From IMG/VR virus record IMGVR_UViG_3300020420_000009, positions 1 to 64,000 of that record: a DNA stretch of 64,000 nucleotides; one strand, given 5' to 3'. Below, piece by piece: positions 2,093-43,153 of the stretch. Made by a program: the position numbers and the translations under genes. The DNA is from a virus. How positions within the stretch are numbered: position 1 is the first letter of the stretch; each line of letters begins with the position of its first letter. Below the pieces are notes generated by a model. It had not been told where the DNA came from and ran no database searches. It saw nothing but the letters and a program-made list of their open reading frames with translations.

Positions 2093-2267
2093 AGGTTCGA
2101 AGAGACGACCTCAAGTTGTCTCTGAAAAAAACTTTCAAGAAGCTTGGGATAAGATATTCCCTAGAAAAGTCACACCTAAACATGGACTAACTTCTGTCCA
2201 TAAAGATAAAACCAAATATAATAGAAAGGTATCTAAGCAGGAACTGCTGAAAGACGAGTCCCAGTAG
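2085..2267 (+). CDS. Small basic phage protein (GKGSKRRP...WDKIF family), probable TTG start overlapping the bS21 stop
   Basis: In-frame TTG at 2085 within the 1959..2267 ORF. The downstream part reads like a recurrent small phage peptide; the upstream part is a shadow of bS21. Confidence 0.55.
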
Positions 2268-25800: not shown

Positions 25801-28800
25801 AGAAATACCAGTATATACACCAAACAGAATAGATATGGGTGGATTAGAACCTGATGGTGAATACGAACTATCAGATGCAGTAGACTATAGACCTACAGTT
25901 GCACAATTATATTCAGATTCAAACTTCTCTACTGCAAATCCCGACCCTCAGAGTCCAGCTAATATATCAACTGGATTAAGTGGTGACCCATTCAAATACG
26001 AAAACAAGGTATTCACAGGAACAGGTTCAGCTGCATTAGATACACCTATGAAAGGTGGTGCAACAGTTGGAGACATAGAGTTCTATACTTCAAGAATAGA
26101 TAGAATCTATTTAGGTAAAGACGGATTATTTGAAATATCAACAGGTATCCCGTCTATATCACCAACTAGACCTAAGGCAATTGACGATTCAATCGAAATG
26201 TTTGAATTGTTCATTCCAGCATATACAAAAAAATTAGAAAATATTAGAGTAAGAAGTTTTGACCATAGAAGATACACTATGAAAGATATAGGTCGTATCA
26301 ATAACAGAGTCACAAATTTAGAAAGAGTCACTTCATTATCTCTATTAGAAAAAGATACACAATCAAAACAAATATTAGATGCAGACGGATTCGATAGGTT
26401 TAAATCAGGTTTCTTAGTAGATAACTTTAGAGGTCATAAGATTGGTGATGTTAACCACCCCGATTATAAATGTGGTATAGACACAAAAATGGGTATGTTA
26501 AGACCTCAAAACATGCAACAATTCTTTGATTTGAATTTAGATACAACAAATTCAACAAATTATCAACAGACTGGTGACTTAATTACTTTACCATTCTCAG
26601 AAGTAAACTATATCAATCAAGATAAAGCTTCAAGACATATTAATGTTAACCCATATCATGTCTTTGCATTTATTGGTAATGTAAAACTAACGCCAGGCAC
26701 AGACATATGGAATGATACAGAAAGACTACCTGATGTCAGAGTTAATAGAGAAGGAAACTTTGACGCTGTTAGAGCGTCAACAGGTAATGCATTAGGAACA
26801 GTTTGGAACTCATGGCAATCTACATGGGTTGGAGAACCTTCAACTGTATCAACAGAAGTTCAATCAACATCATCAGGTTCATGGTCAGGAGACCCAGCTC
26901 AAGGTGGTCAATGGCAATCAGGTCAAGAGGTCACTAGAGAAATTACAGAGTCACCTGAAATACAAACAAGAACAGGTATCTCAACAAGTGTTGTCGAAGA
27001 CTTTGTAGAAACAAGAAACGATAGAATAGTATCTGTTTCAATTATTCCTTTCATGAGAGCAAGGACTATTGAAGTAGACGCAACAAATTTAAAACCAAAC
27101 ACAAACCATTTCTTCTTCTTTGACGGAATTAGAGTTGATAAGTTTGTGAGACCACAAGCATCTGCATATTCACAGGACGGTGGAACTACAGTTTCTTCCA
27201 ATTTAAAATCAGATGGTAATGGTAGATTAAGAGGATTCTTTGAATTACCAAATACTGAAACTCAAAGATTCCCTACAGGACAAAGAGAGTTAAAATTAAC
27301 CTCTTCATTCCATAACTTGTCTAATCCACCAAGTTCAGGTTCAGCAGTATACCAAGCTCAAGGATTATTGTCAAGTTCACAAACAGAAATTGTTTCAACA
27401 AGAAATGGAAGAGTTATAACACAATTAGTAGAAGGTGAAAGACAAATACAAAGGAGAGGTGAAAGATTAAATATATCTCCAGTAGATAATAACCCACCTG
27501 CTATACCTATTGATACAATACCAATTGCTGAACCTATAGTAGCAGACCCAATAATTGCATTCCCAATAGAGGTGCCAGAACCACCAGCAATACCAACTCC
27601 TGAATTACCTAGTGTATTAGATTTCAGAATTGGTTCAAGATTAGAAAGAGGTTGGGGAGACCCACTTGCACAATCATTCTTATGTGAAGCAAGTGGAGGT
27701 ATGTTTATATCTTCTGTAGATGTATTCTTCCAAGCAAAAGATACCCACATGCCTGTTTCTGTAGAAATAAGAAACATGGTGAATGGATATCCAGGCCAAA
27801 TAGTATTACCTTTCTCAACAGTCACAAAGAATCCAAGTGATGTAAATATATCTGCTGACGGTTCGACTGCAACAACATTCTCATTCGAATCACCAGTATA
27901 TGTTGAAGAAAAGAAAGAGTATGCATTAATAGTATACTCAAACTCAAACGAATACGAACAATGGATATCAAGAATGGGTGAAACTGATTTAATATCAGGA
28001 CAACAAATTTCAGGACAACCATACGCAGGTTCACTATTCTTATCACAGAATGCTTCAACTTGGACTGCTGAACAGACAGACGATATGAAGTTTACTATGA
28101 AAATATGTAAATTTGATACTACAAAGATACCAGCTATTCATTTTGAAAACAAAGACCTTGAAATGGATACATTAGGAAAGAACCCATTATTAACAACATC
28201 AGGAAGTAATACTGTTAAAGTATCTGCATACAATCATGGTTTATATGACCCGAGTTCAAATGTAAAAATCTCAGGTGTCGTTGGTGATAGAGTAGGTTCT
28301 GTATTAGAAGTAGGAAGTCCAAACATATCAGGTTCACCTAGTGATAGCACATATACATCACAAACTGCTGATTCCACAACAGGAAGTGGAACAGGTATGA
28401 TAATAAATGTAGAAATAGCAAGTGGTGCAATAGGAACAACAACTGGTATAAGAATTGTAAACCCAGGCCAAGGATATGCAGCTGGTGATACAGTCACATT
28501 TGATGACTTTGACGGTGGAACAGCTGATTTAACAGTCACAGTTGTGACAATTGGTGATACTTTAGGAGGTATTCCAGTAAATGCAATTGGTGGTAGTTCA
28601 GAAATCACATATGGTGATGCTTCAAATGACGGTGTATCAAATATAGGTATCGATTCATTTAATGTTGCACCTAACTTAACAAATTTTATTGCAAATAGTA
28701 AATTAGTAAGTGGATATACTGCATTAGAATCAACAACAGGTGGTGGTTCAGCAGTCAAAGTTTCTAGAAACTATATCTTCGATGCATTACATACAATGAT

Positions 28801-29560
28801 TCCTTCAACACAGGTTGGAAGTTGTAAAGTGGTATCAAGTATTAATACAACTGCAATGAAATCGGTAGAAGGATTTATAAGTTCAGGTGATACAGTTTAC
28901 AATAGAAGAACAACAAATAACTTTATTACATTAAATGACAATACTTTCTTAGACGCTCCAGGCATAGTTGCTTCAGTGGTCAATGAAACAAATAAAATGC
29001 AATCACAAAGGTCATTTAGATTGATAACACAAATGTTATCTAGAAATCCAAATATATCACCAGTGATAGATGTAGGAACTATTGGTTGTATTGCAATATC
29101 AAACAGAATTAATAATATAGATAGTCAAGCTGGTAAGAAACTAGACGGAACATTAACTTCATTACCAACAGACATTACATTTATACCTTCAACAGAACCC
29201 GAAGGTGACCAAAATGCATTTATATATGTGACAAGAAAGGTAAATCTCAAAACTCCAGCAACTTCAATCAAGGTTATTGCAGATAACTTTAGACCACCAA
29301 CAACTGAATTGAAGTATATGTATAAGATTGTCAAGACAGATGAACAAACACCTTTAGACGATATTGGTTTTGAATTCTTTAATACAGACGGTTCACCCGA
29401 TGTTGCAGTTGAAAATGATTCAAGAAACTTTAAGGAATATGAATATACAGTAAATGATTTACCCGAGTTCTCTTCCGTTATAATTAAAATTGTAGGTCAA
29501 GGAACCAACTCTAGTGTAATACCAATGGTATCTGCATTGAGAGTCATGGCATTAGCATAA
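22889..29560 (+). CDS. Large virion structural protein (DUF4815/VrlC-like)
   Basis: LNISPYYDDY...RPLQARELTQ, APGADR-like AAGADRL, DRFKSGFLVDNF, DPLAQSF. Confidence 0.85.
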   Translation: MAEKTDLNISPYYDDYSESKQFHKLLYRAGRPLQARELTQTQSVLQNQIERFGDHFFKEGSIVTGAQSDIDFDLYFVKVLAANPNSSGDAAVESYRTSYHGQFIKGQTTGVVAKVINSDAETSTDYITLYVRLERQGTDTSNSFAFSGDETLVKCGFDSSGAVSEDSTSNNDFKVAPTSTTPVGRTSIANISEGVVFCRGFFVKVEAQQLVLEKYNPKPSYRVGLAIKEEFISVAEDSSLYDNAQGTSNENAAGADRLKFSLTLSKYSLTSTEDANFIEIVRVNQGQIELHTNRPMYTEIENTLARRTFDANGDFIVNQFTHSLREHLDDSTNRGFYLKANGGDESKFVFQVSPGKAYVKGYEIDKIGTSNLNIKKARQSVTLNTANTPTRLGQYIKIKNGFGFPDFGNESGSSGIVPFAICKLFPSVTAVAGTLNSEDHIGFARVRHIDNYGTTNDNTGLYLFDIKMFTKLKAGGSITNSNVGDKVTGSLSGATGIIGHVNGANMYVHDVVGTFVHNDVITSEGDGTATFTVVGENFRGIADQVRTFNIDRVRGIGQERSGSGDADFTADAVADGDNTLTGSVSIAANGNITGFGTRFTAELKEGDIIIDGSGNEQVISAVTDSVTAQTVASSGVGAFSVNPSATRRRVKIFDQDQAVSIYSWPRDFIKSHTPDRITIRRQKVISVSSSKVTITTGTGETFSTVDRDNFQLSIINLDGNSGGGNVLGAELDFASAPPSASNLGGGGQQIQFSTTASDGVKYLVSYTVIDDSPEHRNKVLNRSRCAIVNTAYVAGASDYGTCYDNKDISLGVADVLKVRAIYEGIGGSTPLPPSGRLGGAGYSGTDFVRDEVIIGQTSGAQARIIKYANSGATFFYYLNDFVFTSGETAVGQTTNASAAIDQITTGSDNITARYFFDDGQRDGFYDIAKITLKPGEPTPNNSILIVFDNFTSNGGEFYDVNSYTDAGLDYKEIPVYTPNRIDMGGLEPDGEYELSDAVDYRPTVAQLYSDSNFSTANPDPQSPANISTGLSGDPFKYENKVFTGTGSAALDTPMKGGATVGDIEFYTSRIDRIYLGKDGLFEISTGIPSISPTRPKAIDDSIEMFELFIPAYTKKLENIRVRSFDHRRYTMKDIGRINNRVTNLERVTSLSLLEKDTQSKQILDADGFDRFKSGFLVDNFRGHKIGDVNHPDYKCGIDTKMGMLRPQNMQQFFDLNLDTTNSTNYQQTGDLITLPFSEVNYINQDKASRHINVNPYHVFAFIGNVKLTPGTDIWNDTERLPDVRVNREGNFDAVRASTGNALGTVWNSWQSTWVGEPSTVSTEVQSTSSGSWSGDPAQGGQWQSGQEVTREITESPEIQTRTGISTSVVEDFVETRNDRIVSVSIIPFMRARTIEVDATNLKPNTNHFFFFDGIRVDKFVRPQASAYSQDGGTTVSSNLKSDGNGRLRGFFELPNTETQRFPTGQRELKLTSSFHNLSNPPSSGSAVYQAQGLLSSSQTEIVSTRNGRVITQLVEGERQIQRRGERLNISPVDNNPPAIPIDTIPIAEPIVADPIIAFPIEVPEPPAIPTPELPSVLDFRIGSRLERGWGDPLAQSFLCEASGGMFISSVDVFFQAKDTHMPVSVEIRNMVNGYPGQIVLPFSTVTKNPSDVNISADGSTATTFSFESPVYVEEKKEYALIVYSNSNEYEQWISRMGETDLISGQQISGQPYAGSLFLSQNASTWTAEQTDDMKFTMKICKFDTTKIPAIHFENKDLEMDTLGKNPLLTTSGSNTVKVSAYNHGLYDPSSNVKISGVVGDRVGSVLEVGSPNISGSPSDSTYTSQTADSTTGSGTGMIINVEIASGAIGTTTGIRIVNPGQGYAAGDTVTFDDFDGGTADLTVTVVTIGDTLGGIPVNAIGGSSEITYGDASNDGVSNIGIDSFNVAPNLTNFIANSKLVSGYTALESTTGGGSAVKVSRNYIFDALHTMIPSTQVGSCKVVSSINTTAMKSVEGFISSGDTVYNRRTTNNFITLNDNTFLDAPGIVASVVNETNKMQSQRSFRLITQMLSRNPNISPVIDVGTIGCIAISNRINNIDSQAGKKLDGTLTSLPTDITFIPSTEPEGDQNAFIYVTRKVNLKTPATSIKVIADNFRPPTTELKYMYKIVKTDEQTPLDDIGFEFFNTDGSPDVAVENDSRNFKEYEYTVNDLPEFSSVIIKIVGQGTNSSVIPMVSALRVMALA

Positions 29561-31025: not shown

Positions 31026-32621
31026 ATGGCTGATGAAATATACATAAATCAAGGTTCCCAAGTTCAACAACCCTATCAGGGACAGATTGCCTATCAAGCA
31101 TTTGAAACAACTCAAAGAACTACACAACTTGGAGTAAACAGACAAGGACAACAACCTTTTCCTTTTATTGCTCAAAGTCCTTTTACATATAGAAACCCTG
31201 TTAATCAGCAACAACCTAATATTAGAGATGGACAGAACCCATTTACATATACAAGACAAGGTCAGTCACCGTTTACATACGACCACCAATCACCCTTTAC
31301 ATATAATAGTCAAAATGTTGCTAAGCAATCTTCGTATATTGCAAATGCACAACAACCATATCCGTATATTGCAAATGTTCAAGAACCTAATATCAGAAAT
31401 GCACAAACTACTATTCAAAATGTAAGTAAACAAAGTCCTTTTACATATGATTATCAATCGCCAGGCACTACACCTGTTCAAGGACAACAACCAGTAATTA
31501 GAGATAAACAAATAACTTACGGGAATAATGCAACAGGTCAAAGACCTCTTGCTCAAGGTGGGGTTCAAGCACCAAATAATATTCAAACACCATTTACATA
31601 TCAACATTTACAACCAAGAATGGGTGGATATCAAACTATACCTCAAGCATATCCAGGCCGATTCTATGATGATGATTCGCCAGGCTTTGCAACATATCAA
31701 TATCAGGTTCCAATTATTGCTCAGGCGAGACAACCAAGTCAATTCCAAGCAGCTAATGTGCAAACTCCAACTCCAGCAATTGCAAATTCACAGGCACCAT
31801 ATCCGTATATTGGTCAAGCACAACATTTAACATTTTATTTTAGTCCTAATACTGGTGAGGATTATCCATACAGAACACCAACACAAGCACAGGCTCAAGG
31901 AAGAACACCTTCTACATATCAAGTGCAGGCTAGAACACCGTCATTTACAACACAACAACCGTATCCTTACATACAATATTCTCAAGGCCCTACTACATAT
32001 GAACATAGGTCTCCGTTTACATATCAAACACCGACACAGGAACCTAATATTAGAGATGCAAGACAACCTGTAATATATCAACACCAACAACCAAGCACAT
32101 ATGATTATCAATCACCTAATACATATGCAAGACAAGGACAGACTCCTTTCACATATACTGCAAGACAACCTGTGATATATCAGAATGTTGGTGCAAGCGC
32201 ACAAGAACCAAACATTAGGTCAGGACAACAACCTTATCCATATATTGCACAGGGTAGACAACCATTTACATATAATTATAGGTCACCTTCAACATATCAG
32301 AGTCCTGTAAGTGGGCAACAACCAATTAATTCAACTGGTAGAAATCCATTTCCTTATATACACCAACAACCACAACCGTATATTTACAATTCACCATATA
32401 TTGCAAGACAACCATATACTACAACTAGAAATATAGGTGCTGTTGCAAAAGTTAAAGGTATATTTGTAAATAATCAAGGTGTAGTTGCAAAAGCACAAGA
32501 AGTATATGTGAATGCACCTCAAGGATTAGAAAAAGTTCACCAAGCAGTTCCAAATGCACAATTCTTAAAAGGAACAGAAGGTGACGGTGGACAAACACCA
32601 TATCAACCTGGCCCCGGCTAA
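31026..32621 (+). CDS. Gln/Pro/Tyr-rich repeat fibre protein 1
   Basis: Repeats QQPYPYIA, QEPNIR and QSPFTY; C-terminal VKGIFVNNQG...EVYVN module. Confidence 0.75.
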   Translation: MADEIYINQGSQVQQPYQGQIAYQAFETTQRTTQLGVNRQGQQPFPFIAQSPFTYRNPVNQQQPNIRDGQNPFTYTRQGQSPFTYDHQSPFTYNSQNVAKQSSYIANAQQPYPYIANVQEPNIRNAQTTIQNVSKQSPFTYDYQSPGTTPVQGQQPVIRDKQITYGNNATGQRPLAQGGVQAPNNIQTPFTYQHLQPRMGGYQTIPQAYPGRFYDDDSPGFATYQYQVPIIAQARQPSQFQAANVQTPTPAIANSQAPYPYIGQAQHLTFYFSPNTGEDYPYRTPTQAQAQGRTPSTYQVQARTPSFTTQQPYPYIQYSQGPTTYEHRSPFTYQTPTQEPNIRDARQPVIYQHQQPSTYDYQSPNTYARQGQTPFTYTARQPVIYQNVGASAQEPNIRSGQQPYPYIAQGRQPFTYNYRSPSTYQSPVSGQQPINSTGRNPFPYIHQQPQPYIYNSPYIARQPYTTTRNIGAVAKVKGIFVNNQGVVAKAQEVYVNAPQGLEKVHQAVPNAQFLKGTEGDGGQTPYQPGPG

Positions 32622-32628
32622 TAAAATA

Positions 32629-32636
32629 TATAAATA
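32629..32636 (+). promoter_or_regulatory. T4-type late promoter
   Basis: TATAAATA. Confidence 0.75.
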
Positions 32637-32641
32637 GTTTT

Positions 32642-32974
32642 ATGGCTATTATTGCAAACTTATTCATTGACCAAGGAACAGATTTTTCTATTACGGTAGA
32701 TGTGACTGATTCAGCGGGAACAGCATTAAATCTTACAGGATATTCTGCAGCTGCACAAATCAGAAAGACATATAGTTCTTCAACTGCCTCTGCAACATTC
32801 ACAACAAATATTGCAGCTGCAACTGGACAAGTGACTTTAAGTTTGACAGATACCGAAACTACTAATTTAGAAGCAGGTCGGTATGTATATGACCTAAATA
32901 TAAATAGTTCAGGTGGTCAAAAGACTAGAGTAGTCGAAGGACAAGCAACAGTGACCCCAGGCGTGACGAGGTAA
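32642..32974 (+). CDS. Small virion structural protein (BppU N-terminal-like)
   Basis: NLFIDQGTDF...LNLTGYSAAAQIRK...GRYVYD...RVVEGQATVTPGVT. Confidence 0.75.
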   Translation: MAIIANLFIDQGTDFSITVDVTDSAGTALNLTGYSAAAQIRKTYSSSTASATFTTNIAAATGQVTLSLTDTETTNLEAGRYVYDLNINSSGGQKTRVVEGQATVTPGVTR

Positions 32975-32976
32975 GT

Positions 32977-33189
32977 ATGGCAACAATTAAAGCAAGAGTA
33001 TTAAACAACAGTAATATCAGAGCAAAACAGGTCGCAATCGGTAATACCGATACGGTGAACTTATCAACAAAATCTATACAAGAACTTTCAGATGTCAATG
33101 CAACAGAGACAGATAAAGGAGTTCTTCAATATAACGCTTCTACAGATAAGTGGGAAACCACTAATGTTTTAGACGGCGGAACATTCTAA
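32977..33189 (+). CDS. Small fibre adaptor ending DGGTF
   Basis: LSDVN...GVLQYNASTDKW fibre repeat; C-terminus VLDGGTF. Confidence 0.7.
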   Translation: MATIKARVLNNSNIRAKQVAIGNTDTVNLSTKSIQELSDVNATETDKGVLQYNASTDKWETTNVLDGGTF

Positions 33190-33192
33190 AAG

Positions 33193-33305
33193 TATAAATA
33201 CTTATACAATCAAGGTGTCATTCAGTGAGACACGACCCTCATAGTGAGAGGATTGGTATATTATAATCTTTCTCGAATAGTGCAGAGAAAAATTTGCAAA
33301 TTTTT
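33193..33305 (+). promoter_or_regulatory. Late promoter followed by a structured 5' leader with three AGUG-loop hairpins
   Basis: TATAAATA at 33193-33200; gtgtc-attcagtga-gacac, cctc-atagtga-gagg and tttctc-gaatagtgca-gagaaa; closing stem tatacaatc/gattggtata. Confidence 0.6.
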
Positions 33306-33337
33306 AATATAAACAACTATTTTTTCAGGAGAAAAAA

Positions 33338-34774
33338 ATGGCAACAGTAATTCAGATTAAACGAAGCACAGGAGTGTCCGCCCCCGCAGTCTCAGACTTG
33401 TCGGAAGGCGAATTAGCTTATGTGCAAGATAGGTCTAATTCGGGTGCTGGAGCAAAACTTTACATAGAATCCGTAGATTCTGATAATTCAACTCCATTGA
33501 TTCATGCAATCGGTGGTAAATACTTTACTGATATTTTATCAGGTTCAACTGCAACACCAGCCAACTTTAAAGTTGGTAATAGTGCAACGCAGGGAGCTGA
33601 GATTCAGTTATTAGAAGATTCAGATAACGGTTCACATTATGTTGCATTGAAAGCACCTAACAGTGTGGCTGGAAATGTGACATTAACCTTGCCGGGCGCA
33701 GACGGTTCTAATGGACAAGTTTTGGGAACAGACGGAAGTGGAACCCTATCATTTATTTCGACAACCTCGACTCTTGCTGGTGCGTCAGACACAGATATAT
33801 CCTCACCTAGTGGTGGACATATCCTAGTCTACGATGGAAGTAATTCCTTCGACAATGTCGCAGTATCAGGAGACGCAACAATTGCATCTAACGGTGCATT
33901 AACAATAGCAAACACTGCTGTGGAAACAGCAATGATTGCAAATGACGCAGTCACACTAGACAAGATTGCAGATGCAGTTATCATTACAGAAGGAGAAGGT
34001 ATTTCTTCTAATGATGTGGACACAGGATTCCCAACAGCAGCTGCAGTTAAAGATTATGTTGATTCACAGGACACTGCTCAAGACTTGGATTTCCAAGCTG
34101 ATTCAGGTGGTGCCTTATCAATTGATTTAGACAGTGAAACCATGGTATTTGCTGGAACAGCAAATGAGATTACAACAACTGCATCAGGTAATACCGTCAC
34201 AATCGGTATGCCAGATAATGTCACTATCGCAGGAAACCTAACAGTAAGTGGAACAACTACTACAGTTAACTCTACAACAGTTAGTATTGCTGACCCAGTT
34301 TTTGAAATTGGTGACGATAGTTCAGACGACAACCTAGACAGAGGTATTAAATTCAAATACAACAGTTCAGGTGCAAAAGTTGGTTTCTTCGGTTTCGATG
34401 ATTCAACAGGTAAGTTCATAGCATTAGGAGCTGCAACAGACTCTTCTTCAACATTCTCAGGAACAGCATTAGGTGCAGTTTTTGGTGGATTAGAAGCTTC
34501 AGGTCTTGCTCTTTCAGGTTCTATTACTTCTATTGACGGGTCTGCTCCAACAGCAGGTCAGTTGTTAATTGGTCACGGTTCAAACGGTGACTTTGCAGCT
34601 GGAACCCTAACAGCAGGAGAAGGTATAGATGTGACTAATGCAGACGGTAGTATCACAATCGCAGGTGAAGATGCATCAACCTCTAATAAAGGTATAGCAA
34701 GTTTTGCAAGTGCAAACTTTACAGTGAGTAGTGGTGCAGTATCAATAACTGCTATTGACGGCGGAACATTTTAA
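33338..34774 (+). CDS. Fibre protein with an Mtd_N-like N-terminus and C-terminal DGGTF
   Basis: [10 protein letters not shown]...LSEGELAY; [16 protein letters not shown] module; ends IDGGTF; AGGAG RBS. Confidence 0.75.
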
Positions 34775-34800
34775 TTAACCGTTTATAGGAGGAAAACGAT

Positions 34801-35628
34801 ATGGCAACTCAGATACAGTTTAAGCGTTCATCAACTCAGAATGAAGTGCCCGCAACAAGTGATTTAGCACTTGGTGAAGTGGCAATCAATACCTATCATG
34901 GTAGAATGTATACAGAGAAAAATGATGGAAGTGCAGCTATAGTTCAGATTGGGTCTAACCCAACTTCACTAACTGTTAATGATGCATATTCTTTTCCAAC
35001 CGCTGACGGTTCTAGTGGTCAAGTCTTAAAAACTGACGGTTCAGGAACATTAAGTTTCGGAGCTGCAAGTAGTGGAGCTGGTATATCTATTTTTAAATAT
35101 ACTATATCTTCAAACACTACTTCGATAACTGGTAATGACGATGACGGAAACTCTCTATCCTACACAGTAGGTTCAGAGCAAGTTTACCTCAACGGTGTTA
35201 AACTGGTTGACGCAGGAACAGACTATACTGCCACAAATACATCAACCGTCACTTTGGCACAGAATGCTATAAGTGGAGATGTAGTAGAAGTTGTATCCGT
35301 GACTGCAACTGATTTAGTTCAAGGGAACTATACAGAAAGTTCATTCTCGGCAACAACTGCAAACCAAGTATTATCAGCAAACGCGGTTGCCAATAAGGCA
35401 ATCAAGTATGTGATAGTCGCAACACATGCTTCTGCAGGCACACATGCTTGTGAAGTGTTAATAGTAAACAATGGAAGTAATTCATATTTCGTTCAATACG
35501 GTGATGTGATTTCAAGTTCCAGTTTGTTTTCACTGAGTTCAGATATTAATTCAGGAAACATGAGATTACTCATTACTCCAGTTAATACAAATACTACAGT
35601 GGATACATTCCAAATCAGACTTACATAG
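34801..35628 (+). CDS. Fibre adaptor: Mtd_N-like N-terminus, VYLNGV domain and C-terminal beta-sandwich
   Basis: MATQIQFKRS...LALGEVAINT; VYLNGVKL...DYTATN; KYVIVA...EVLIV...QYG. Confidence 0.7.
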   Translation: MATQIQFKRSSTQNEVPATSDLALGEVAINTYHGRMYTEKNDGSAAIVQIGSNPTSLTVNDAYSFPTADGSSGQVLKTDGSGTLSFGAASSGAGISIFKYTISSNTTSITGNDDDGNSLSYTVGSEQVYLNGVKLVDAGTDYTATNTSTVTLAQNAISGDVVEVVSVTATDLVQGNYTESSFSATTANQVLSANAVANKAIKYVIVATHASAGTHACEVLIVNNGSNSYFVQYGDVISSSSLFSLSSDINSGNMRLLITPVNTNTTVDTFQIRLT

Positions 35629-35638
35629 GGGGATATAA

Positions 35639-36049
35639 ATGGCAATAACTAAAGCTTTTAAACTTGCAGAACTTATCCGACATATAGAGTATGATTCTAC
35701 AGACGATGTAATTAAAACGAGTAAACCAACTCAAGATAAAAATACAAAGAAAGGAAGTGATACTAAAACTTCTACTTCTCAATTTAGTCTTGATACATTT
35801 GCTCATGCAACCTACAGGGCTGCAAGATACATAGTTGCAATGTCAGAAGGAACTAATTTCCATTCTACTGAAATCATGTTGATTCATGACGGAACAACAG
35901 TGACAATCACACAGTATGGTATACTCAAGGATACTACACTTGCCACATTTGATGCAGACATTAATGGCTCAAATGTTAGACTATTATGCACTCCTGCTTC
36001 TACAAACTCGACAGTAATCAAGTTTGACAGAACAGTAGTGGACGCATAA
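35639..36049 (+). CDS. Virion structural protein, paralogous to the C-terminal domain of the preceding gene
   Basis: LDTF...YRAARYIV...HSTEIMLIHDGT...TQYG...VRLL; N-terminus MAITKAFKLA. Confidence 0.7.
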   Translation: MAITKAFKLAELIRHIEYDSTDDVIKTSKPTQDKNTKKGSDTKTSTSQFSLDTFAHATYRAARYIVAMSEGTNFHSTEIMLIHDGTTVTITQYGILKDTTLATFDADINGSNVRLLCTPASTNSTVIKFDRTVVDA

Positions 36050-36055
36050 GTTCTT

Positions 36056-36082
36056 AAGGGGGTCAATCGACCCCCTTTTTTT
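36056..36082 (+). terminator. Rho-independent terminator
   Basis: aagggggtc-aatc-gaccccctt followed by a T run. Confidence 0.85.
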
Positions 36083-36152
36083 CATATTTCTTTTTTCTTT
36101 AGACACCCCAATCTCATAAATAATCAAGTAAAACTTAAATTGAGGACACTAA

Positions 36153-36413
36153 ATGGCAACTACAAATACTTTTGTTATTGAATACGGGATAAGTGTCGGG
36201 TCAACAGAGGTTATCAATAGCTCAGGTAAATTACAAGCGAGTGCAATCAGCACTCTAGATACGGATAATCTTTCAGAGGGTTCGACAAATCAATATTTCA
36301 CGAATGCAAGAGCAAGAGGAGCAATCTCACTTGCAAGTGGAGAAACTAATTTATCATATAATTCTTCAAATGGAGAATTGAGTTTGCCAACAGTTAATGG
36401 AGGCTCGTTCTAA
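36153..36413 (+). CDS. Small fibre adaptor ending NGGSF
   Basis: N-terminus paralogous to the next gene (FVIEYGISVGSTEVINSSG); one TDNLSEGSTNQYFTNARAR repeat. Confidence 0.7.
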   Translation: MATTNTFVIEYGISVGSTEVINSSGKLQASAISTLDTDNLSEGSTNQYFTNARARGAISLASGETNLSYNSSNGELSLPTVNGGSF

Positions 36414-38641
36414 TGGCAGATGTAAACTTTAAAATTAAAAATGGTCTATCCGTAGGGGATACCGAGGTATTAGACAGCTCAGGTGATTTAACTGCAGCTG
36501 CATTCGGAACTGCAGCCCTAGAAAAAATAGATGACCAAGTAAACTCTTTACTAACAGCAGGTTCAGGAATATCATTATCATATGATGATTCAGCAGGAAC
36601 ATTAACAGTCACGAGAGACGCAGAGACAGGAGACATTGAAGGAGTCACTGCTGGAGACGGACTTTCAGGTGGTGGAACAAGTGGAACAGTATCACTTGCA
36701 TTAGACCTAAACGAATTAACAGCTGCAACAGTAGATGTATCTGCCGATAGTATACCATTCATAGATGGCACTGCAACAAGAAAAGAAAGTATTTCAGATT
36801 TAGTATCAGGAATGGCTGGAACAAATTTAACTGCAAGTTCAGGAACATTAGGAATTGCAGATTCAGTTATTAGAGGAAAGATTAGTGCAAGTGGAGATTT
36901 ATCATATAACTCTTCAACTGGTGTAATATCATTTACAAATGACGCTGGTGACATAGAAAGTGTTGTTGCTGGTTCAGGTTTAACAGGCGGTGGCACATCA
37001 GGAGATGTCACACTAAATGTTATAGGTGGTGACGGTATTACTGCAAATGCAAACGATATTGCATTATCTTCATCAGTTGCAGGCGACAATCTTTCATATA
37101 GTTCAGGTGTCCTAGCAGTAGAACAAAATTTAACAAATTCTTCTGCACCATATTATCATAGGTCAATAGTCACCGTATCAAGTGGTAAATTCTTATTTGA
37201 CGGTCAATCGTCCTCACAAGCTTTAAGACTAACACCAAATGTAGTCTATAGATTTGACCAATCAGATAGTTCAAACGGTTCACACCCATTAAGATTCTCT
37301 GAATCAGCAGACGGTTCAGAAATGACAGACGGTTATTTAATCTATAACAAAGTTGGAACTCCAGGCTCTAGTGGTTCATATACAGAAGTTGCATTCGACC
37401 AAGAATCAAACAATCCTATGTATTTCTACTGTTCAAATCACAGTGGAATGGGTAATACAGTTATACTTGGTGGTGCAGAGAATACAGATTCATTAGACGA
37501 AGGTTCGAGTAATCTTTATCATACCACTGCAAGAGCAAGAGCAGCTATAAGTGCTGGTGGTGACTTATCATACAACAGCACAACTGGTGTAATGAGTTTC
37601 ACAAACGATGCTGGAGACATATCATCAGTCGTTGCTGGAGACGGTTTAACAGGTGGTGGAACAACAGGAGATGTCACACTTGCAGTTCAAGTAGATGATA
37701 GTTCTATAGAAACAGATTCAGATACATTAAGAGTAAAAGCAAGTGGTATAACAAATGCCATGTTAGCAGGTTCGATTGCAAATGATAAACTTGCTGGTTC
37801 GATTGCAAACGCAAAACTTGCAAATAGTTCTATAACTCTAAACTCTAATACAGTTGCATTAGGTAATTCACTTACATTAGATACAGACGATATCGGTGAG
37901 GGTTCAAGTGCCCAATATCATACAACAGAAAGAGTTCAAGATGTAGTTGGAGCTCAGATTGCAACTAATGGTTCACATACAAATATTACTGCAAGTTATG
38001 ACGACGCTGGAGACGGTGCAGTCGACTTATCAATCACAGATGCAGTAATCAGAGGTAAAATATCTGTCACAGATTCAGGTGGAGACGGTTCACTTGCATA
38101 TAATAACTCTACTGGTGTAATAACATATACTGGCCCAAGTGCTTCAGAAGTAAGAGCTCACATAAGTGCTGGAACTGGTGTAGGATTCTCAGGTGGTGCA
38201 GTTAGTATTGGACAGGCAGTTGGAACAAGTGATAATGTGACCTTTAACAATTTGGTTGTAGGTGGAAACCTAACAGTCAGTGGAACTACTTCAACAGTTA
38301 GTTCTACAAATACAACAATTTCAGATGCACTTATAGAATTAGGAAATGGAACATCAGGTTCTCCTTCAAATGACGCAGGTTTGGTTATTGAAAGAGGAAG
38401 TTCAGATAATGTGTTTATAGGTTGGGACGAAAGTGCAGACGCAATCACATTCGGAACAGGTTCATTTACTGGTGCTTCAACAGGTAATTTAACAATTACC
38501 CCAAGTGCAGTTAACACTGGTGCAGTCACAATTACAAATGCAACAAATAATGGTGGAACTGCAAGAAACATATATCAGTCAACCTCTGCACCTAGTGGTT
38601 CAGACGGAGCAGTTGGTGATTTATGGATTCTATACTCCTAA
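36413..38641 (+). CDS. Long fibre protein with a cupredoxin-like insert, ending GDLW
   Basis: GDIxxVxAGxGLxGGG repeats; HPLRFS...YFYCSNHSGMG; C-terminus SAPSGSDGAVGDLWILYS. Confidence 0.75.
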   Translation: MADVNFKIKNGLSVGDTEVLDSSGDLTAAAFGTAALEKIDDQVNSLLTAGSGISLSYDDSAGTLTVTRDAETGDIEGVTAGDGLSGGGTSGTVSLALDLNELTAATVDVSADSIPFIDGTATRKESISDLVSGMAGTNLTASSGTLGIADSVIRGKISASGDLSYNSSTGVISFTNDAGDIESVVAGSGLTGGGTSGDVTLNVIGGDGITANANDIALSSSVAGDNLSYSSGVLAVEQNLTNSSAPYYHRSIVTVSSGKFLFDGQSSSQALRLTPNVVYRFDQSDSSNGSHPLRFSESADGSEMTDGYLIYNKVGTPGSSGSYTEVAFDQESNNPMYFYCSNHSGMGNTVILGGAENTDSLDEGSSNLYHTTARARAAISAGGDLSYNSTTGVMSFTNDAGDISSVVAGDGLTGGGTTGDVTLAVQVDDSSIETDSDTLRVKASGITNAMLAGSIANDKLAGSIANAKLANSSITLNSNTVALGNSLTLDTDDIGEGSSAQYHTTERVQDVVGAQIATNGSHTNITASYDDAGDGAVDLSITDAVIRGKISVTDSGGDGSLAYNNSTGVITYTGPSASEVRAHISAGTGVGFSGGAVSIGQAVGTSDNVTFNNLVVGGNLTVSGTTSTVSSTNTTISDALIELGNGTSGSPSNDAGLVIERGSSDNVFIGWDESADAITFGTGSFTGASTGNLTITPSAVNTGAVTITNATNNGGTARNIYQSTSAPSGSDGAVGDLWILYS

Positions 38642-38667
38642 TAAATAGGAGACATACAGGATAATTT

Positions 38668-40071
38668 ATGGCGTCAGGTTCACAGAAAGTTAAAACCCCA
38701 TCAGGTTGGAATGCAACTCAAGGTGCATGGGTCAAGACAGGCCCGTCTACTTGGAAAGCAGTTGACCAAATTTATATTAAAGCTCCAGGCGGGTGGAATA
38801 ATGCTTCAGGTCAAGAGGCAGTGCAACAACCTTATCCATATATTGCACAGGGTGGTTCTCCATATATTGCAAATGCACAGAACCCATATCCCTATATTGC
38901 AAATGCACAGGAACCAAACATTAGGTCAGCACAACAACCTTATCCTTACATTGCAGACGGTGGGTCACCTTATATTGCAAATGGACAGGAACCTAATATT
39001 AGAAACCAACAGGAACCAAATATTCGTTCTGCACAGCAACCGTATCCATATATTGCAAATGCACAGGAACCTAATATAAGAAACAGACAAAATCCGTTTA
39101 CATACGACCATAGGTCACCTTTTACATATAATCACAGAAGTCCTTTTACATATGACCATAGGTCACCTTTTACATATCGTAATCCGTTTACTTACAATCA
39201 TAGGTCACCATTTACATATAACTATAGGTCACCGTTTACATACAGAAGTCCTGTGAGTGCTCAGGAACCTAATATTAGGAATGGACAGAACCCATTTACA
39301 TATCCAGCAAATATTCAACAACCGAATATTCGTTCTGCACAACAACCGTTTACATATCCAGCAAATATTCAACAACCAAATATTAGGAGTGCTCAACAAC
39401 CGTTCACATATCCTGCGAATATTCAGCAACCTAATATAAGAGACGCTAGGACACCGTTTACCTATCATGCAAGACAGCCGGGCAGTGCAAGACAACCAGT
39501 TCCTTTCTCATATCAAAGTCCATATATCGGAACTGCAAGACAACCAGTTTACTACCCAGGCGGTGGTTCACCAGGCTTCGGTGGTGGTTGTTTCGCAATG
39601 GGAACTATGATATGGATGAGCGACAATACATACAGACCAATCGAAACTATAGAAATTGGAATGTCAGTAATGACATTCGGAGAATCAATAGAGGTTGGAG
39701 TGGTCGAAGAACTTATGCAGCCTAGAGTGTGTGGGTTATACGATATAGAAGTCAACGGTAAAATTACTGGTGTGACTGGAGGACACCCATTCTTAGTTCA
39801 AGATAAAGGGTGGTGTGTTATAAACATGGAAGACTGGGAGCAAGAAGTTGCTGACGGTGTTGCTTGGGGTGGAGAAGTCTCAGGTGTAATTGAAGAGGGT
39901 GATATCCTTGTAGATTCATTATCATTGATTTTAAATAATCAATCGAATGCAAAGGTATCTAATATTAACAAATTGGAAGGAGAACATGAGGTCTATCACT
40001 TGGCTCGTGTAAGTGATAATGCGAACTTCTTTGCAAATGACTTTGTAGTCCATAACTTACAGAAGAGATAA
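38668..40071 (+). CDS. Gln/Pro/Tyr-rich repeat fibre protein 2, N-terminal half, with a C-terminal Hint domain
   Basis: N-terminal WVK...WK...IYIK...GW module; repeats; GGG|CFAMGT...TGGHPF...VYHL...NFFANDFVVHN. Confidence 0.85.
   Translation: MASGSQKVKTPSGWNATQGAWVKTGPSTWKAVDQIYIKAPGGWNNASGQEAVQQPYPYIAQGGSPYIANAQNPYPYIANAQEPNIRSAQQPYPYIADGGSPYIANGQEPNIRNQQEPNIRSAQQPYPYIANAQEPNIRNRQNPFTYDHRSPFTYNHRSPFTYDHRSPFTYRNPFTYNHRSPFTYNYRSPFTYRSPVSAQEPNIRNGQNPFTYPANIQQPNIRSAQQPFTYPANIQQPNIRSAQQPFTYPANIQQPNIRDARTPFTYHARQPGSARQPVPFSYQSPYIGTARQPVYYPGGGSPGFGGGCFAMGTMIWMSDNTYRPIETIEIGMSVMTFGESIEVGVVEELMQPRVCGLYDIEVNGKITGVTGGHPFLVQDKGWCVINMEDWEQEVADGVAWGGEVSGVIEEGDILVDSLSLILNNQSNAKVSNINKLEGEHEVYHLARVSDNANFFANDFVVHNLQKR
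39589..40056 (+). other. Hint (intein-like) autoprocessing domain, 156 aa, no endonuclease
   Basis: Block A Cys1 (CFAMGT), block B TxxH (TGGH), block F (VYHL...NFFAN), block G HN; the +1 residue is Leu. Confidence 0.88.
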
Positions 40072-40072
40072 T

Positions 40073-40867
40073 ATGCCATTTTATCAAAGTGTATATGCAA
40101 CTCAAGCAAGACAACCAGTTCCTGCGAGTTATCAGAGCCCATACGGAACTCAGAATCCTTACATTGCAAATGCAAGACAACCGTTTACCTATAATTATAG
40201 GTCACCGTTTACATATCAAGCACCTGCTAGAAACCCTTTCACTTATCATTATAGGTCACCCTTTACATATCAAGCACCCGCTAGAAACCCTTTCACCTAT
40301 AATTACAGGTCACCATTCACCTATCAGGCACCTGCGAGACAGCCTTTTACTTATCACTATAGGTCACCGTTCACTTATAGAAATCCAGTATCAGCACAAG
40401 AACCAAATATCAGGTCAGCACAACAACCGAATATTAGAGATGCACAATCACCAAGTAATGCACAACAACCTACTATTAAGTCAGCACAAGAACCAAACAT
40501 TAGGTCAGCACAGGAACCTAATATTAGGGACGCAAGACAACCTTCTACATATGATTATCGTTCACCTTCAACATACGAAAGACAGGGTCAAACACCTTTC
40601 ACATATGACCATAGGTCACCTTTAACATATTCACATAGAAGTCCGTTTACATATAGTAATCAGAACCCTACAACTTATGCAAGACAGGGTCAGACACCAT
40701 TTACTTACAACTATAGAAGTCCTTCGACATATGCAAGACAAGGTCAGACACCTACTACATACAGTAATCAAAACCCGACTACTTATGCAAGACAAGGTAG
40801 AACACCAGTTATTAGGTGGGACGGAGTCTTACAACAACAATGGCCTGGAACACCGATATCTAGTTAA
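40073..40867 (+). CDS. Gln/Pro/Tyr-rich repeat fibre protein 2, C-terminal half
   Basis: Same repeat vocabulary (RSPFTY, QEPNIR, RQGQTPFTY); starts 1 nt after the upstream stop (TAATATG). Confidence 0.8.
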   Translation: MPFYQSVYATQARQPVPASYQSPYGTQNPYIANARQPFTYNYRSPFTYQAPARNPFTYHYRSPFTYQAPARNPFTYNYRSPFTYQAPARQPFTYHYRSPFTYRNPVSAQEPNIRSAQQPNIRDAQSPSNAQQPTIKSAQEPNIRSAQEPNIRDARQPSTYDYRSPSTYERQGQTPFTYDHRSPLTYSHRSPFTYSNQNPTTYARQGQTPFTYNYRSPSTYARQGQTPTTYSNQNPTTYARQGRTPVIRWDGVLQQQWPGTPISS

Positions 40868-40894: not shown

Positions 40895-42556
40895 ATGGAT
40901 ACTTTTGAATATATACAAACCCTAGACCGAGCAAAAGAGTTATTCAAACCCTATACTTCTTATGAGGATATGCCTACAAAGCAAGTTCAATTAGGTCAAC
41001 TCCCTGTTCCAAAACATAGAAAAGATACAGACGAAACAGAAGAAGTGTGGAGATACATTATAGATGAATGTATGCCTCCAATTAGATTAGTCACTTGGAA
41101 AGATATAAAACCTTTAATGGATAGTAAAGAGATTATGTCATGGGGTGGATTAGACCACAACGCATATCAATACTTAAATTATCTACATAAAGGTTGGACA
41201 GAAGAAAATAGACCCGACCACCCTCTCAAAGGTGGTTCTATGGATTATATGAATGCAGACGGTGAATACGAATGTCTTACTCAACCTACAATAAAAACAG
41301 CTTATGATAGGATAAAGTTTGCAGACAAATATGGATATGTAGAAGGAACTCAAGAATATGAAGACTTAATGAATGGAGTTATAGATATAACTCTTGATTC
41401 TGAAAAAGAAAATACAATATGTTCTATTTACTATCACGCTGCAAAAGCTCATTGGTTAATAAATGATATACAAAAGAATGGTCTCTGGCAACCTATTCAA
41501 GGTCTTACACACTACACAGGAAATCCAGGCGGTAAACATTCTTTATCTATACACCCTGGCTCAATGAGAAGTAGGTCTTTTCAATCAATGGATTATCCCG
41601 ATAATACTTGTCTTGTCACTGATTATAGTAATTGTTTTCCTAATCACCCTCGTTTAAGTATGGAAAATATAAGAGATTATTGGTTCTCTCTAATACCTAA
41701 AGAGGGTAGAAATGTAAATGCAATTTATACAGACCAAAGAAAAATAGAGTTTAGTCCCTCTTTAGTTCAAGGTGGTGGAACTGATTTTAGAAAATATGTT
41801 TATGCATATAATAAGAAAGTGACAAAGTTATGTAAAAAGAAACCTTTAAACATATACATTGGTTATGATTCTTCTCACGATAATATTATACATGAAGTTT
41901 GTGAAAAGTCAATACATGATAGCATAGAAAGGTCAAAAAGTAAAGGCGCAGGAGCGGATTACTTTAACGATTTTGAAATAGAAACTAAATTACTTGACAT
42001 AAGCAAAATAAAAGATTATAATAGAGACTATGCAAATCAATCTACTGAATTTACATATAGTAGATTTTTAATTCCATATCTAGAAAACTATGAGGGGTTT
42101 AGTATCTTTATAGATAATGATTACATATGGAAGAGAACTCCTTTACCATTTTTCTATTTTCTTGACCCCGACCATGCTGTTGCTTGTGTGCAATATGATT
42201 TTGAACACCATGACAGTGTAAAAATGGGTGGAGAAGTAAATATATCATATCCTAAAAAACTATGGTCTAGTATGATGATATTTAATAATGGACACGAAGA
42301 TTGTAAAAAGTTAACACCCGAAGTTGTTAATAATCAGTCAGGTAAATATTTACATCAGTTTGAATGGACAGATAAAATTAGTAAAATACCTCATGGAAAA
42401 ATTGCAACAGAAGGATTTGAAACAGAATGTCTTGATTCACACCATGCAGTCCATTATACAAGGGGTGGGCCATGGATAAAAGGCATGGATTGTTCAAACA
42501 TAAATATGTTAGAACAATTTTATAAAGTGAAAAGCACCTTGCCAACAAACAAATAA
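40895..42556 (+). CDS. Glycosyltransferase (GT-A, GT8-like) fused to an N-terminal ParB/Srx-like domain
   Basis: IYIGYDS, QSTEFTYSRFLIPYL, FIDND, YPKKLWSSMMIFN, HYTRGGPW. Confidence 0.85.
   Translation: MDTFEYIQTLDRAKELFKPYTSYEDMPTKQVQLGQLPVPKHRKDTDETEEVWRYIIDECMPPIRLVTWKDIKPLMDSKEIMSWGGLDHNAYQYLNYLHKGWTEENRPDHPLKGGSMDYMNADGEYECLTQPTIKTAYDRIKFADKYGYVEGTQEYEDLMNGVIDITLDSEKENTICSIYYHAAKAHWLINDIQKNGLWQPIQGLTHYTGNPGGKHSLSIHPGSMRSRSFQSMDYPDNTCLVTDYSNCFPNHPRLSMENIRDYWFSLIPKEGRNVNAIYTDQRKIEFSPSLVQGGGTDFRKYVYAYNKKVTKLCKKKPLNIYIGYDSSHDNIIHEVCEKSIHDSIERSKSKGAGADYFNDFEIETKLLDISKIKDYNRDYANQSTEFTYSRFLIPYLENYEGFSIFIDNDYIWKRTPLPFFYFLDPDHAVACVQYDFEHHDSVKMGGEVNISYPKKLWSSMMIFNNGHEDCKKLTPEVVNNQSGKYLHQFEWTDKISKIPHGKIATEGFETECLDSHHAVHYTRGGPWIKGMDCSNINMLEQFYKVKSTLPTNK
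41994..42022 (+). promoter_or_regulatory. Perfect sigma70 consensus promoter inside the glycosyltransferase gene
   Basis: TTGACA-17 nt-TATAAT. Confidence 0.55.
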
Positions 42557-42567
42557 TATGGTATACT
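42539..42567 (+). promoter_or_regulatory. Sigma70-type promoter with extended -10
   Basis: TTGCCA-17 nt-TATACT with TGn; directly before the 42578 start. Confidence 0.6.
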
Positions 42568-42577
42568 GGAGATTATT

Positions 42578-43153
42578 ATGAATGCATTAACTTATTGTGA
42601 GTTTGGAAATCTACAAATTAGAAAACCAAACGGATTAGAATATCGATTTGAAAATGTCGATAAGCCTGAATTAGGTTTTGATTATGAGGTTTTAATATAC
42701 GACCAAATAGAAGTCAAAGTATTAAAATGGGAAGAAGGAAAACCTTTAGAAGAACAGGAAACATTACCTTTATCTGAGACAGATAGAGATAGTATTGAAA
42801 AATATATTTCAAATTCAGAACCACCTATGGGTGTAAATTTGAATAATCAATTTATCGGTGAAATTAATAGAGCTGCACGAGAGAATATACAATTACAATC
42901 ACAGAAACATGGTTTTGATGATTTCTTTGAATGTATATATGCTGGAAGAGAAGGTTCTGCTCACCCTTATAGGTCAGACGCAAGACGAGTATTAGAATAT
43001 GCAGATGCAACTAATAATGTTCTTGACGGTCTTTTCAGAGAAATATCTGTCACTAGAGAAGATACTTTAAAACCTATAGAAGAATATCTTTTGGCTTTAC
43101 CTACTCCCTCAAATTTGAAGGACGGAGGATTTAATGCCGAACATAAACTTTGA
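42578..43153 (+). CDS. Hypothetical protein, C-terminus resembling tail-fibre assembly proteins
   Basis: QKHGFDDFFECIYA...PYRSDARRV...PIEEYLLALP pattern. Confidence 0.5.
   Translation: MNALTYCEFGNLQIRKPNGLEYRFENVDKPELGFDYEVLIYDQIEVKVLKWEEGKPLEEQETLPLSETDRDSIEKYISNSEPPMGVNLNNQFIGEINRAARENIQLQSQKHGFDDFFECIYAGREGSAHPYRSDARRVLEYADATNNVLDGLFREISVTREDTLKPIEEYLLALPTPSNLKDGGFNAEHKL

Follow-up and report, generated by a model that had tools for sequence, protein, structure and literature searches.

How might two abutting genes that encode little besides short Gln/Pro/Tyr-rich repeats specify one long fibre, and what is an intein-like domain doing at the point where they meet? The question is raised by a 64,000-nt stretch of viral DNA (positions 1 to 64,000 of IMG/VR record IMGVR_UViG_3300020420_000009; hereafter 'the window'), which makes up the first 64 kb of a 129.7-kb record estimated to be 71% complete. 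Between positions 38668 and 40867 the window carries two genes, here called A and B, whose products share a Gln/Pro/Tyr-rich composition and are built of units of 6, 8 or 10 residues that start [Q/R]-x-Pro. We propose, with a probability of roughly 0.7 and on the strength of comparative sequence analysis, that A and B form the paired arms of a single long fibre, zipped together antiparallel, capped by a Hint domain and encoded in a host-recognition cluster.

A first-pass annotation made from the window alone had given the coordinates of the open reading frames (ORFs) exactly, and the repeat vocabulary and block order that it described are those that we observe. It had also treated A and B as a single 'fibre 2', one chain folded back on itself as a hairpin. 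The repeat blocks are present, but they lie on two ORFs in different frames and belong to two polypeptides; likewise the block order stands, but the 160 residues that separate its 'N-half' from its 'C-half' (A residues 308–467, a Hint domain plus tail) had been overlooked. The features of the pair are:

38668–40071, plus strand: gene A, 467 aa, comprising base module, shaft arm, Gly-rich overhang, Hint domain and tail
38668–38823, plus strand: N-terminal Trp-rich module of A, residues 1–52, the putative virion-proximal base
38824–39558, plus strand: shaft arm of A, residues 53–297, 30 units of 6, 8 or 10 residues (the last of 9), each starting [Q/R/G]-x-Pro
39559–39588, plus strand: Gly-rich overhang of A, GGGSPGFGGG, residues 298–307, extending past the start of B; probable tip loop and end of the N-extein
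39589–40056, plus strand: Hint domain fitting the BIL type, Cys308–Asn463 (CF...TGGHP...VVHN), from Pfam, AlphaFold2 (AF2) and Foldseek
40057–40071, plus strand: tail of A, LQKR, and stop codon, with no Cys, Ser or Thr at +1
40073–40867, plus strand: gene B, 264 aa, putative return arm; its ATG lies 1 nt past the A stop, in another frame
40109–40798, plus strand: shaft arm of B, residues 13–242, 28 units that mirror the A unit lengths and are of opposite type
40799–40864, plus strand: conserved C-terminal motif of B, RTPVIRWDGVLQQQWPGTPISS, the putative base partner of the A N-terminal module

The shaft of A opens with QQPYPYIANA/QEPNIRSA units (residues 53–140) and continues with RSPFTY units (141–192), after which come two copies of PANIQQPNIRSAQQPFTY and a variant, PANIQQPNIRDARTPFTY. 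B starts instead with three APAR[NQ]PFTYxYRSPFTYQ units, followed by an EPNIRSA block and then by RSPFTY/ARQGQTPFTY units. The outer ends of the pair are the conserved ones: the N-terminal module of A has 32 invariant columns in 13 homologues (mean column identity 86%), and in the C-terminal motif of B (consensus RTPVxRWDGxLxQxWPxTPxxS) residues R248, W249, D250, W257, P258 and P261 are invariant in 19 homologues.

Relatives were sought in IMG/VR, which yielded 80 loci with A as the query and 74 with fibre 1, a repeat protein encoded upstream in the window and taken up below; nearly all carry A and B as two adjacent genes. The deduplicated set holds 56 entries, the window included. Three entries are without a complete B, L063 was left out of most counts (its Hint domain had been mis-parsed) and L023 was left out of certain counts, its B gene looking frameshifted, either a pseudogene or an assembly error. 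In that locus the gap between A and B measures 318 nt (L023:6599–6916) and contains repeat-coding sequence in another frame. Six Hint-bearing loci (L012–14, L018, L019, L021) were missed by the pattern used for the start of A and entered the junction comparison only. Relatives occur in at least 420 marine-metagenome protein clusters at E ≤ 0.001, and none of the 120 homologous proteins listed carries a functional name. A fused A–B protein was also sought, and was found neither among these 120 homologues, none of which has both end motifs, nor in the ORF listing of the 80 loci. A literature search, which covered few subscription journals and no supplements, yielded no published description of these proteins, and a search of the literature for the repeat peptide strings gave one unrelated match only.

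The order of unit lengths in B mirrors that in A far beyond chance. Anchors were defined as the prolines of the [Q/R/G...]-x-P motif that opens each unit. With a parse tuned to the window, in which a QAPA stretch is counted within the preceding unit, 29 of 31 anchor prolines in A have a B anchor at a constant sum of 300, and the reversed unit lengths of A equal those of B in 28 of 28 unit pairs (22 of 28 with the untuned parse). Mirror order scores above parallel order in all 52 unique related gene pairs, and above every one of 200 shuffles of the A unit order in 50 of these. The mirrored interval series can be followed almost without a break in relatives of very different length (22/22 in L088, 35/35 in L067, 40/40 in L016, 44/44 in L081 and 68/69 in L068), and in three relatives every A anchor lies on one constant sum (41/41, 45/45 and 70/70). 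The match is also specific to the partner: among 42 distinct unit architectures, the gene's own B is the best mirror partner in 29, with a mean score of 0.78 against 0.44 for non-own partners. A coarse comparison of block types in the window alone points weakly the same way (antiparallel 0.78, parallel 0.67). The spacing of anchors is almost exclusively 8, 6 or 10 residues; of the 1676 intervals in A, 99.2% are even, as are 97.6% of the 1709 in B.

An inverted repeat in the DNA is rejected as the source of this mirror. A blastn comparison of A with B gives 84 plus-strand high-scoring segment pairs and four tiny minus-strand ones, the genes share 154 direct but only seven inverted 8-mers, and the palindromes present are of 16–17 nt. 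This bears on a reading in which the repeat proteins are disordered low-complexity 'whiskers' or elastic linkers and the mirror is a side effect of the origin of the repeats. Such a reading would suit the Gln/Pro/Tyr-rich composition, the lack of a Pfam or PHROG family, and the AF2 predicted local distance difference test (pLDDT) values of about 30 over all repeats of fibre 1. Tandem duplication, however, yields direct and not mirrored order, inverted DNA homology is lacking, the mirror is kept across lineages that differ in unit order and range from 22 to 70 units, and disorder does not predict that 99% of proline spacings should be even. We consider this reading very improbable.

The units that face one another in mirror order are, moreover, of complementary type. 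This was counted in the 34 of 50 unique pairs with at least 90% of anchors on one sum, in which 1147 of 1391 facing pairs set a PFTY-type unit against a PNIR/PYIA-type unit, 11 bring two units of the same type together, and 233 include an untyped unit. Together with the mirror being best in 52 of 52 pairs, this bears out the earlier expectation of an antiparallel order in which one repeat type faces the other. In the window 23 of 28 facing pairs follow the rule; three that do not are composite 10-residue units, PFTY+PANI facing PFTY+QAPA, and in an antiparallel reading the PFTY half of either unit meets the PANI or QAPA half of its partner. The pairs nearest the tip in the window are RQPGSA opposite QSPYGT, and the near-identical RQPVPFSY opposite RQPVPASY.

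Complementarity extends to single residues. When the antiparallel register was shifted through 17 positions, the one lying two residues from Pro-on-Pro stood out: the summed side-chain volume varied least there (variance 1643; 2135–3441 in the 16 others) and mutual information was greatest (1.62 bits), and in this register proline stands opposite the Q/R of the partner motif, and Tyr or Phe opposite Ala or Gly. In the window this best register corresponds to i+j=298, which places the C-terminal motif of B opposite A residues ~33–52 and leaves the GGGSPGFGGG of A (298–307) overhanging the start of B. Even spacing agrees with a two-residue beta periodicity, whereas the three-residue period of a polyproline helix and the seven-residue period of a coiled coil do not fit. 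Because the proline spacing is even and the register sets Pro against Q/R and large against small residues, the evidence points to pairing of the beta-strand type, possibly as a two-stranded ribbon or a bundle of ribbons. A predicted complex of A(1–306) with B scored 0.00, with partner pLDDT below 50.

If the arms are paired, their lengths should change together, and the first-pass annotation had proposed a check of whether insertions or deletions in one half are compensated in the other. Over 42 architectures the spans of the A and B arms correlate with r=0.965, and the first block of A matches the last block of B in length (87/89 in the window; 125/127, 53/55, 163/165 and 197/194 in relatives). 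Sister pairs were taken from a tree of a conserved downstream gene (53 of 53 entries), which gave 16 pairs, 10 of them differing in length. Four changed in a matched way (A/B: −36/−34 for the window and L009, +45/+46, +18/+18, and −105/−110 for L063 and L075, the last figure after subtraction of the L063 Hint domain, which had wrongly been counted in the length of A), and two differ by one residue. Compensation is thus borne out by the spans and by these four pairs, but not by four of the ten, to which we return below.

Equal lengths could also arise if A and B each formed a rod of its own, for example trimeric and parallel, the two being joined end to end where the C-terminal end of A meets the N-terminal end of B, like the proximal and distal halves of the T4 long tail fibre; the mirror would then reflect a knee at which one half-fibre folds onto the other. 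T4-type fibres are indeed described as being built of half-fibres with a hinge (PMC6957217), the variable elements of the present family sit exactly at the A/B junction, and equality of the halves would likewise yield a length correlation. Harder to explain without close contact all along the rods is that the lengths are equal unit by unit; near-absolute complementarity of type and a size-complementary register are equally awkward for two separate rods, and the two conserved ends, the A N-terminal module and the B C-terminal motif, would be placed at opposite ends of the extended fibre. We therefore regard end-to-end half-fibres as improbable, and favour antiparallel pairing of A with B.

Several observations weigh against antiparallel pairing, or at least against counting its support at face value. 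Sixteen of 50 pairs have fewer than 90% of their anchors on one sum. The anchor and unit-type patterns were set after the sequences had been seen, and the counts are not independent events, because the relatives share ancestry. The contigs are metagenome assemblies, in which tandem repeats can collapse. In the four sister pairs mentioned above, either a single gene changed in length or the two genes moved opposite ways (−36/+18, −19/0, 0/+44 and −17/0), and these are nearly identical phages, at flank distances of 0.000–0.042; they could be recent uncompensated variants or collapsed assembly repeats. The raw correlation of length changes over the ten pairs is −0.17, a value driven by the one row in which a Hint domain was wrongly included in the length of A. 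Finally, the repeats of fibre 1 are unstructured in its AF2 model (nine sequences, mean pLDDT 33.4).

What, then, lies where the arms meet? The variable site of the family is the junction between the C-terminal end of A and the N-terminal end of B, which takes three forms: a short Gly-rich end, a Hint domain, or a globular domain. In the globular form a domain of ~140 residues ends A and is followed by a small ORF of 86–100 aa before B (L047:6001–8722, L068:4547–8621, L081:5535–8581). Such an arrangement resembles a receptor-binding tip accompanied by a chaperone or adaptor, and a Pfam search with the globular tip domains and the small inter-gene ORFs of the relatives returned nothing meaningful.

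The window has the Hint form. Residues 308–463 of A make up a complete Hint domain (GGG/CFAMGT...TGGHP...VVHN, the slash marking its start), followed by LQKR and the stop. Against PF14890 it scores 31.5 bits, below the cut-off of 35.8, and by sequence search the best match of solved structure is 2LWY at E=0.063; identity to solved BIL domains is 20–22%. An AF2 model made with ten sequences has a pLDDT of 91.4, and its best Foldseek match is BIL2 of Tetrahymena (6TMM; E=2.5e-9, template modelling (TM) score 0.77–0.80), with the Clostridium thermocellum BIL 2LWY at E=1.2e-7. There are 54 matches in the PDB at E ≤ 0.001, those listed being all inteins, BIL domains or hedgehog, with mini-inteins ranking after BILs and hedgehog 1AT0 in 20th place (TM score 0.56). 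The domain is common in the family: 55 of the 120 homologues listed have it, all 55 ending in His-Asn and a tail of 4–15 residues, and in 48 of them GGG precedes the Cys.

Three other identities were considered and rejected. A canonical class 1 splicing intein would have Cys, Ser or Thr at +1 and lie within a conserved host protein whose two halves it ligates, but here the +1 residue is Leu, the reading frame closes four residues after the domain, and B starts independently in a different frame. Nor do A and B appear to be a single gene, interrupted by a true intein and broken by a frameshift: in the window, as in all 10 distinct related loci compared (from 14 fetched), the Hint domain is followed by a short tail and a stop, B has a start codon of its own, and the A–B gaps in those 10 Hint-bearing loci vary from −1 to 18 nt and in frame. 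A Hog domain would share the GGG/CF site opening a C-terminal Hint, but only four residues follow the Hint in place of the sterol-recognition region, and a terminal His-Asn is present. The HINT fold, N-terminal Cys, block-B His and terminal His-Asn without a +1 nucleophile instead fit an A-type BIL domain, as does a position where two paired fibre genes of a host-recognition cluster meet at a variable junction; A-type BIL domains are described as located in hypervariable, non-conserved proteins (PMC7765530). Autocleavage is predicted on this assignment.

It is possible that the domain is nothing but a decaying selfish mini-intein lodged at the end of A, merely self-removing or tolerated. The domain lacks an endonuclease, the gene cluster is hypervariable, and 44 of 56 unique entries are not classed as Hint and have otherwise the same architecture. 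Yet all 10 sequences compared retain the catalytic Cys and the block-B His-Pro, and nine of the 10 retain His-Asn, at identities of 22–88% to the window copy; Lys, which makes up 0.23% of the shafts and 4.6% of Hint plus tail, is present in 37 of 37 distinct tails; and the domain never interrupts a conserved site, a Cys, Ser or Thr at +1 occurring in one of those 37. The invariance of Cys and His and the retention of the tail Lys argue for selection on the chemistry and not for decay, and we regard the selfish element as rather unlikely. One copy departs from the pattern: the Hint of L063 (L063:6814–7263) keeps the Cys and the block-B His, ends VDS... in place of VHN, and has a tail without Lys; judging from these residues, this copy may be able to cleave only at its N-terminal end.

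We thus picture a BIL-type Hint domain acting at the tip of a paired fibre. The chains made from the abutting genes A and B would zip antiparallel, so that the virion-proximal base is made up of the Trp-rich N-terminal module of A together with the RWDG...W end of B, and the C-terminal end of A meets the N-terminal end of B at the distal tip. Depending on the relative, that tip would carry nothing, a globular domain with its small ORF, or a Hint domain. A paired arm of ~245 residues would measure ~80 nm if extended, and its length would evolve through matched insertions and deletions in both genes. The Hint domain would form a thioester between Gly307 and Cys308 and, most likely, remove itself from the tip, perhaps with water or the conserved Lys in the short tail behind it as the acceptor of the acyl group. 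BIL2 is described as passing its thioester to a Lys amine to give an isopeptide (PMC8616854), and with the tail Lys conserved as well, such self-transfer is plausible by analogy; simple hydrolysis and attack by the N-terminal amine of B are possible outcomes too. The last of these leads to a bolder and quite improbable version, in which the unit code and the matched lengths set the register of a natural, two-letter-coded duplex over hundreds of residues, by analogy with base pairing in nucleic acids, and in which the Hint domain seals that duplex by joining the last Gly of A to the amine at the start of B, so producing a covalently closed hairpin.

A natural comparison is available within the window itself in fibre 1, whose features are:

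31026–32621, plus strand: fibre 1, 531 aa, single-chain Gln/Pro/Tyr repeat protein (ORF, shared repeats, constant-sum test)
31026–31049, plus strand: N-terminal strand MADEIYIN of fibre 1, conserved and putatively a base element, invariant in 9/9 aligned homologues
31623–31880, plus strand: degenerate centre of fibre 1, residues ~200–285, the putative turn, with the fold centre at ~242 (constant-sum centre 242.5)
32427–32570, plus strand: C-terminal non-repeat module of fibre 1, AKVKGIFVN...EVYVN...EKVHQAVPNAQF, conserved in 9/9 homologues

As the first-pass annotation had seen, fibre 1 uses the common vocabulary, matching B at E=4.5e-22 and A at E=2.9e-17. A second suggestion, that the non-repeat modules of fibre 1 (C-terminal) and A (N-terminal) are related by circular permutation, was abandoned: hhalign aligns them over 22 columns with a probability of 0.6% (E=0.09). 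A unit-by-unit scan of fibre 1 for a fold finds nothing above shuffles, the series being interrupted by degenerate units; proline intervals that are irregular or odd are confined to the degenerate centre. The constant-sum test, which tolerates lost anchors, places 10 pairs of anchor prolines on the sum 485, a number equalled or exceeded in 1 of 500 shuffles. Seven of nine fused homologues, the window included, have a self-mirror reached by at most 3 of 500 shuffles (0 of 500 for five and 3 of 500 for one of the others), with L089 at 15 of 500 and L093 giving no self-mirror signal in this test. In the fold-back register MADEIYIN stands opposite the KVKGIFVN of the C-terminal module, and in the AF2 model strand 4–9 and module 478–506 are moderately confident (pLDDT 57–68 for the module).

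In 10 of 12 related loci (L097, L099, L110, L111, L113, L116, L118, L121, L141 and L162) the fibre 1 locus consists of two adjacent genes, the first with a MADEIYIN-like start and a globular C-terminal domain, the second ending in a ...VYVN...EKIHQSVP module, the C-terminal module of fibre 1 in the window. Among such split relatives the mirror is clear only in L162 (19 of 20 units, against 12 of 15 in parallel order) and weak in the others. Since fibre 1 shares the repeats of A and B, mirrors itself and is two genes in relatives, it is best read, from these comparisons, as a fused single-chain version of the A/B design that would fold back near residue 242.

The surroundings of these genes suggest where the fibre might act. 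At 22889–29560 lies a gene for a 2223-aa homologue of VrlC, and because the closest relatives of this protein are from Methylophilales phage Melnitz (36.9% identity), Pelagibacter phages Mosig and HTVC008M and cyanomyophages, the source of the window is, by VrlC relationship, an uncultured marine T4-like myovirus. The fibre genes are located just downstream, among genes that match PHROG tail-fibre families, and this tail-fibre-module location recurs, synteny being kept in 74–77 of the 80 related loci. The stretch from VrlC to the neck gene has been described as the hypervariable 'host recognition cluster' of pelagimyophages and cyanomyophages (PMC7029224). Gene context suggests that A and B are tail-fibre genes, with a putative presence in the virion and a putative role in adsorption. 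Megablast and tblastn searches of 50,697 phage records with the region, gene A and the A N-terminal module gave no match, although the low-complexity filter may mask repeats; the stretch of Melnitz examined downstream of its VrlC homologue has no Gln/Pro/Tyr-rich ORF; and neither fibre 1, gene B nor the repeat part of A has a family in Pfam or PHROGs.

Two neighbouring segments complete the picture:

32642–32974: 110-aa ORF between fibre 1 and the next fibre genes, matching phrog_1084 (E=3.8e-31) and phrog_3304, 'L-shaped tail fiber protein assembly' (E=1.8e-25)
40895–44802: conserved block after B, encoding a 553-aa protein (phrog_28018, unknown function), a 191-aa protein, a 245-aa 2OG-Fe(II) oxygenase and a 314-aa protein

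The 110-aa ORF is similar to a Melnitz gene annotated as 'tail fiber'. The oxygenase scores 33.9 bits against PF13640 (cut-off 27), a homologue is kept in all 51 unique related loci with at least 3.2 kb of sequence after B, and the enzyme might act on the proline-rich fibre as a modifier. The repeat genes are overlain by long ORFs in other frames or on the opposite strand (38711–39079, 40089–40625, 39229–39495 on the minus strand, and others); as far as can be told these are by-products of the repeats and not separate genes.

If antiparallel pairing of A and B is correct, it would represent a new way to build a long protein rod, with register and length held in a complementary repeat code, and could offer protein engineers a template for heterodimeric fibres of programmable length. 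It would likewise account for the way in which uncultured myoviruses, abundant in the sea, adjust how far a host-recognition fibre extends, with the tip variants (bare, globular with a small ORF, or Hint) marking the likely receptor-facing end; the Hint-tipped variants would then be a first phage-fibre setting for BIL-type thioester chemistry, which is predicted here.

The closest published architecture is the needle of gp37 (PDB 2XGF), the tip protein of the T4 long tail fibre: there, too, chains run out and back, with their ends at the base of a thin rod. As described for gp37, domain D11 (residues 882–1009) is inserted in D10 and the chain runs out to the tip and back, as one chain of a homotrimer over ~130 residues with seven His-bound iron atoms (PMC6957217). 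Unlike gp37, whose needle is shorter by a factor of several, the present system has two genes, arms of ~245 residues (to ~530 in relatives) and a heterotypic unit code, and in A, B and fibre 1 we see neither an H-x-H motif, of the iron-binding kind that runs along both strands of the gp37 needle, nor sequence similarity to gp37. For the tip, the likeness is to BIL domains (2LWY, 6TMM/6Y75), among them BIL2 of the Tetrahymena BUBL1 locus, with which the Hint domain shares the HINT fold, N-terminal Cys, block-B His, His-Asn without a +1 nucleophile, a place in a hypervariable protein and an N-extein ending in Gly-Gly. Unlike the solved BILs, it would stand at the tip of a phage fibre arm with only 4–15 residues after it. 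The C-terminal intramolecular chaperone domains of K1F endosialidase and T5 pb1 use a protease of Ser-Lys type and act on parallel homotrimers; the Hint domain resembles them in being C-terminal, made with the fibre protein and, by prediction, self-removing, and differs in fold and chemistry. Finally, in the stalk of streptococcal antigen I/II a single chain winds an alpha-helix with a polyproline helix and carries a tip domain at the turn. That stalk and the A/B pair have in common two different repeat regions lying antiparallel over a long distance with their ends at the base, whereas the A/B fibre would consist of two chains, with even, beta-like proline spacing and a code of length and type that is matched unit by unit.

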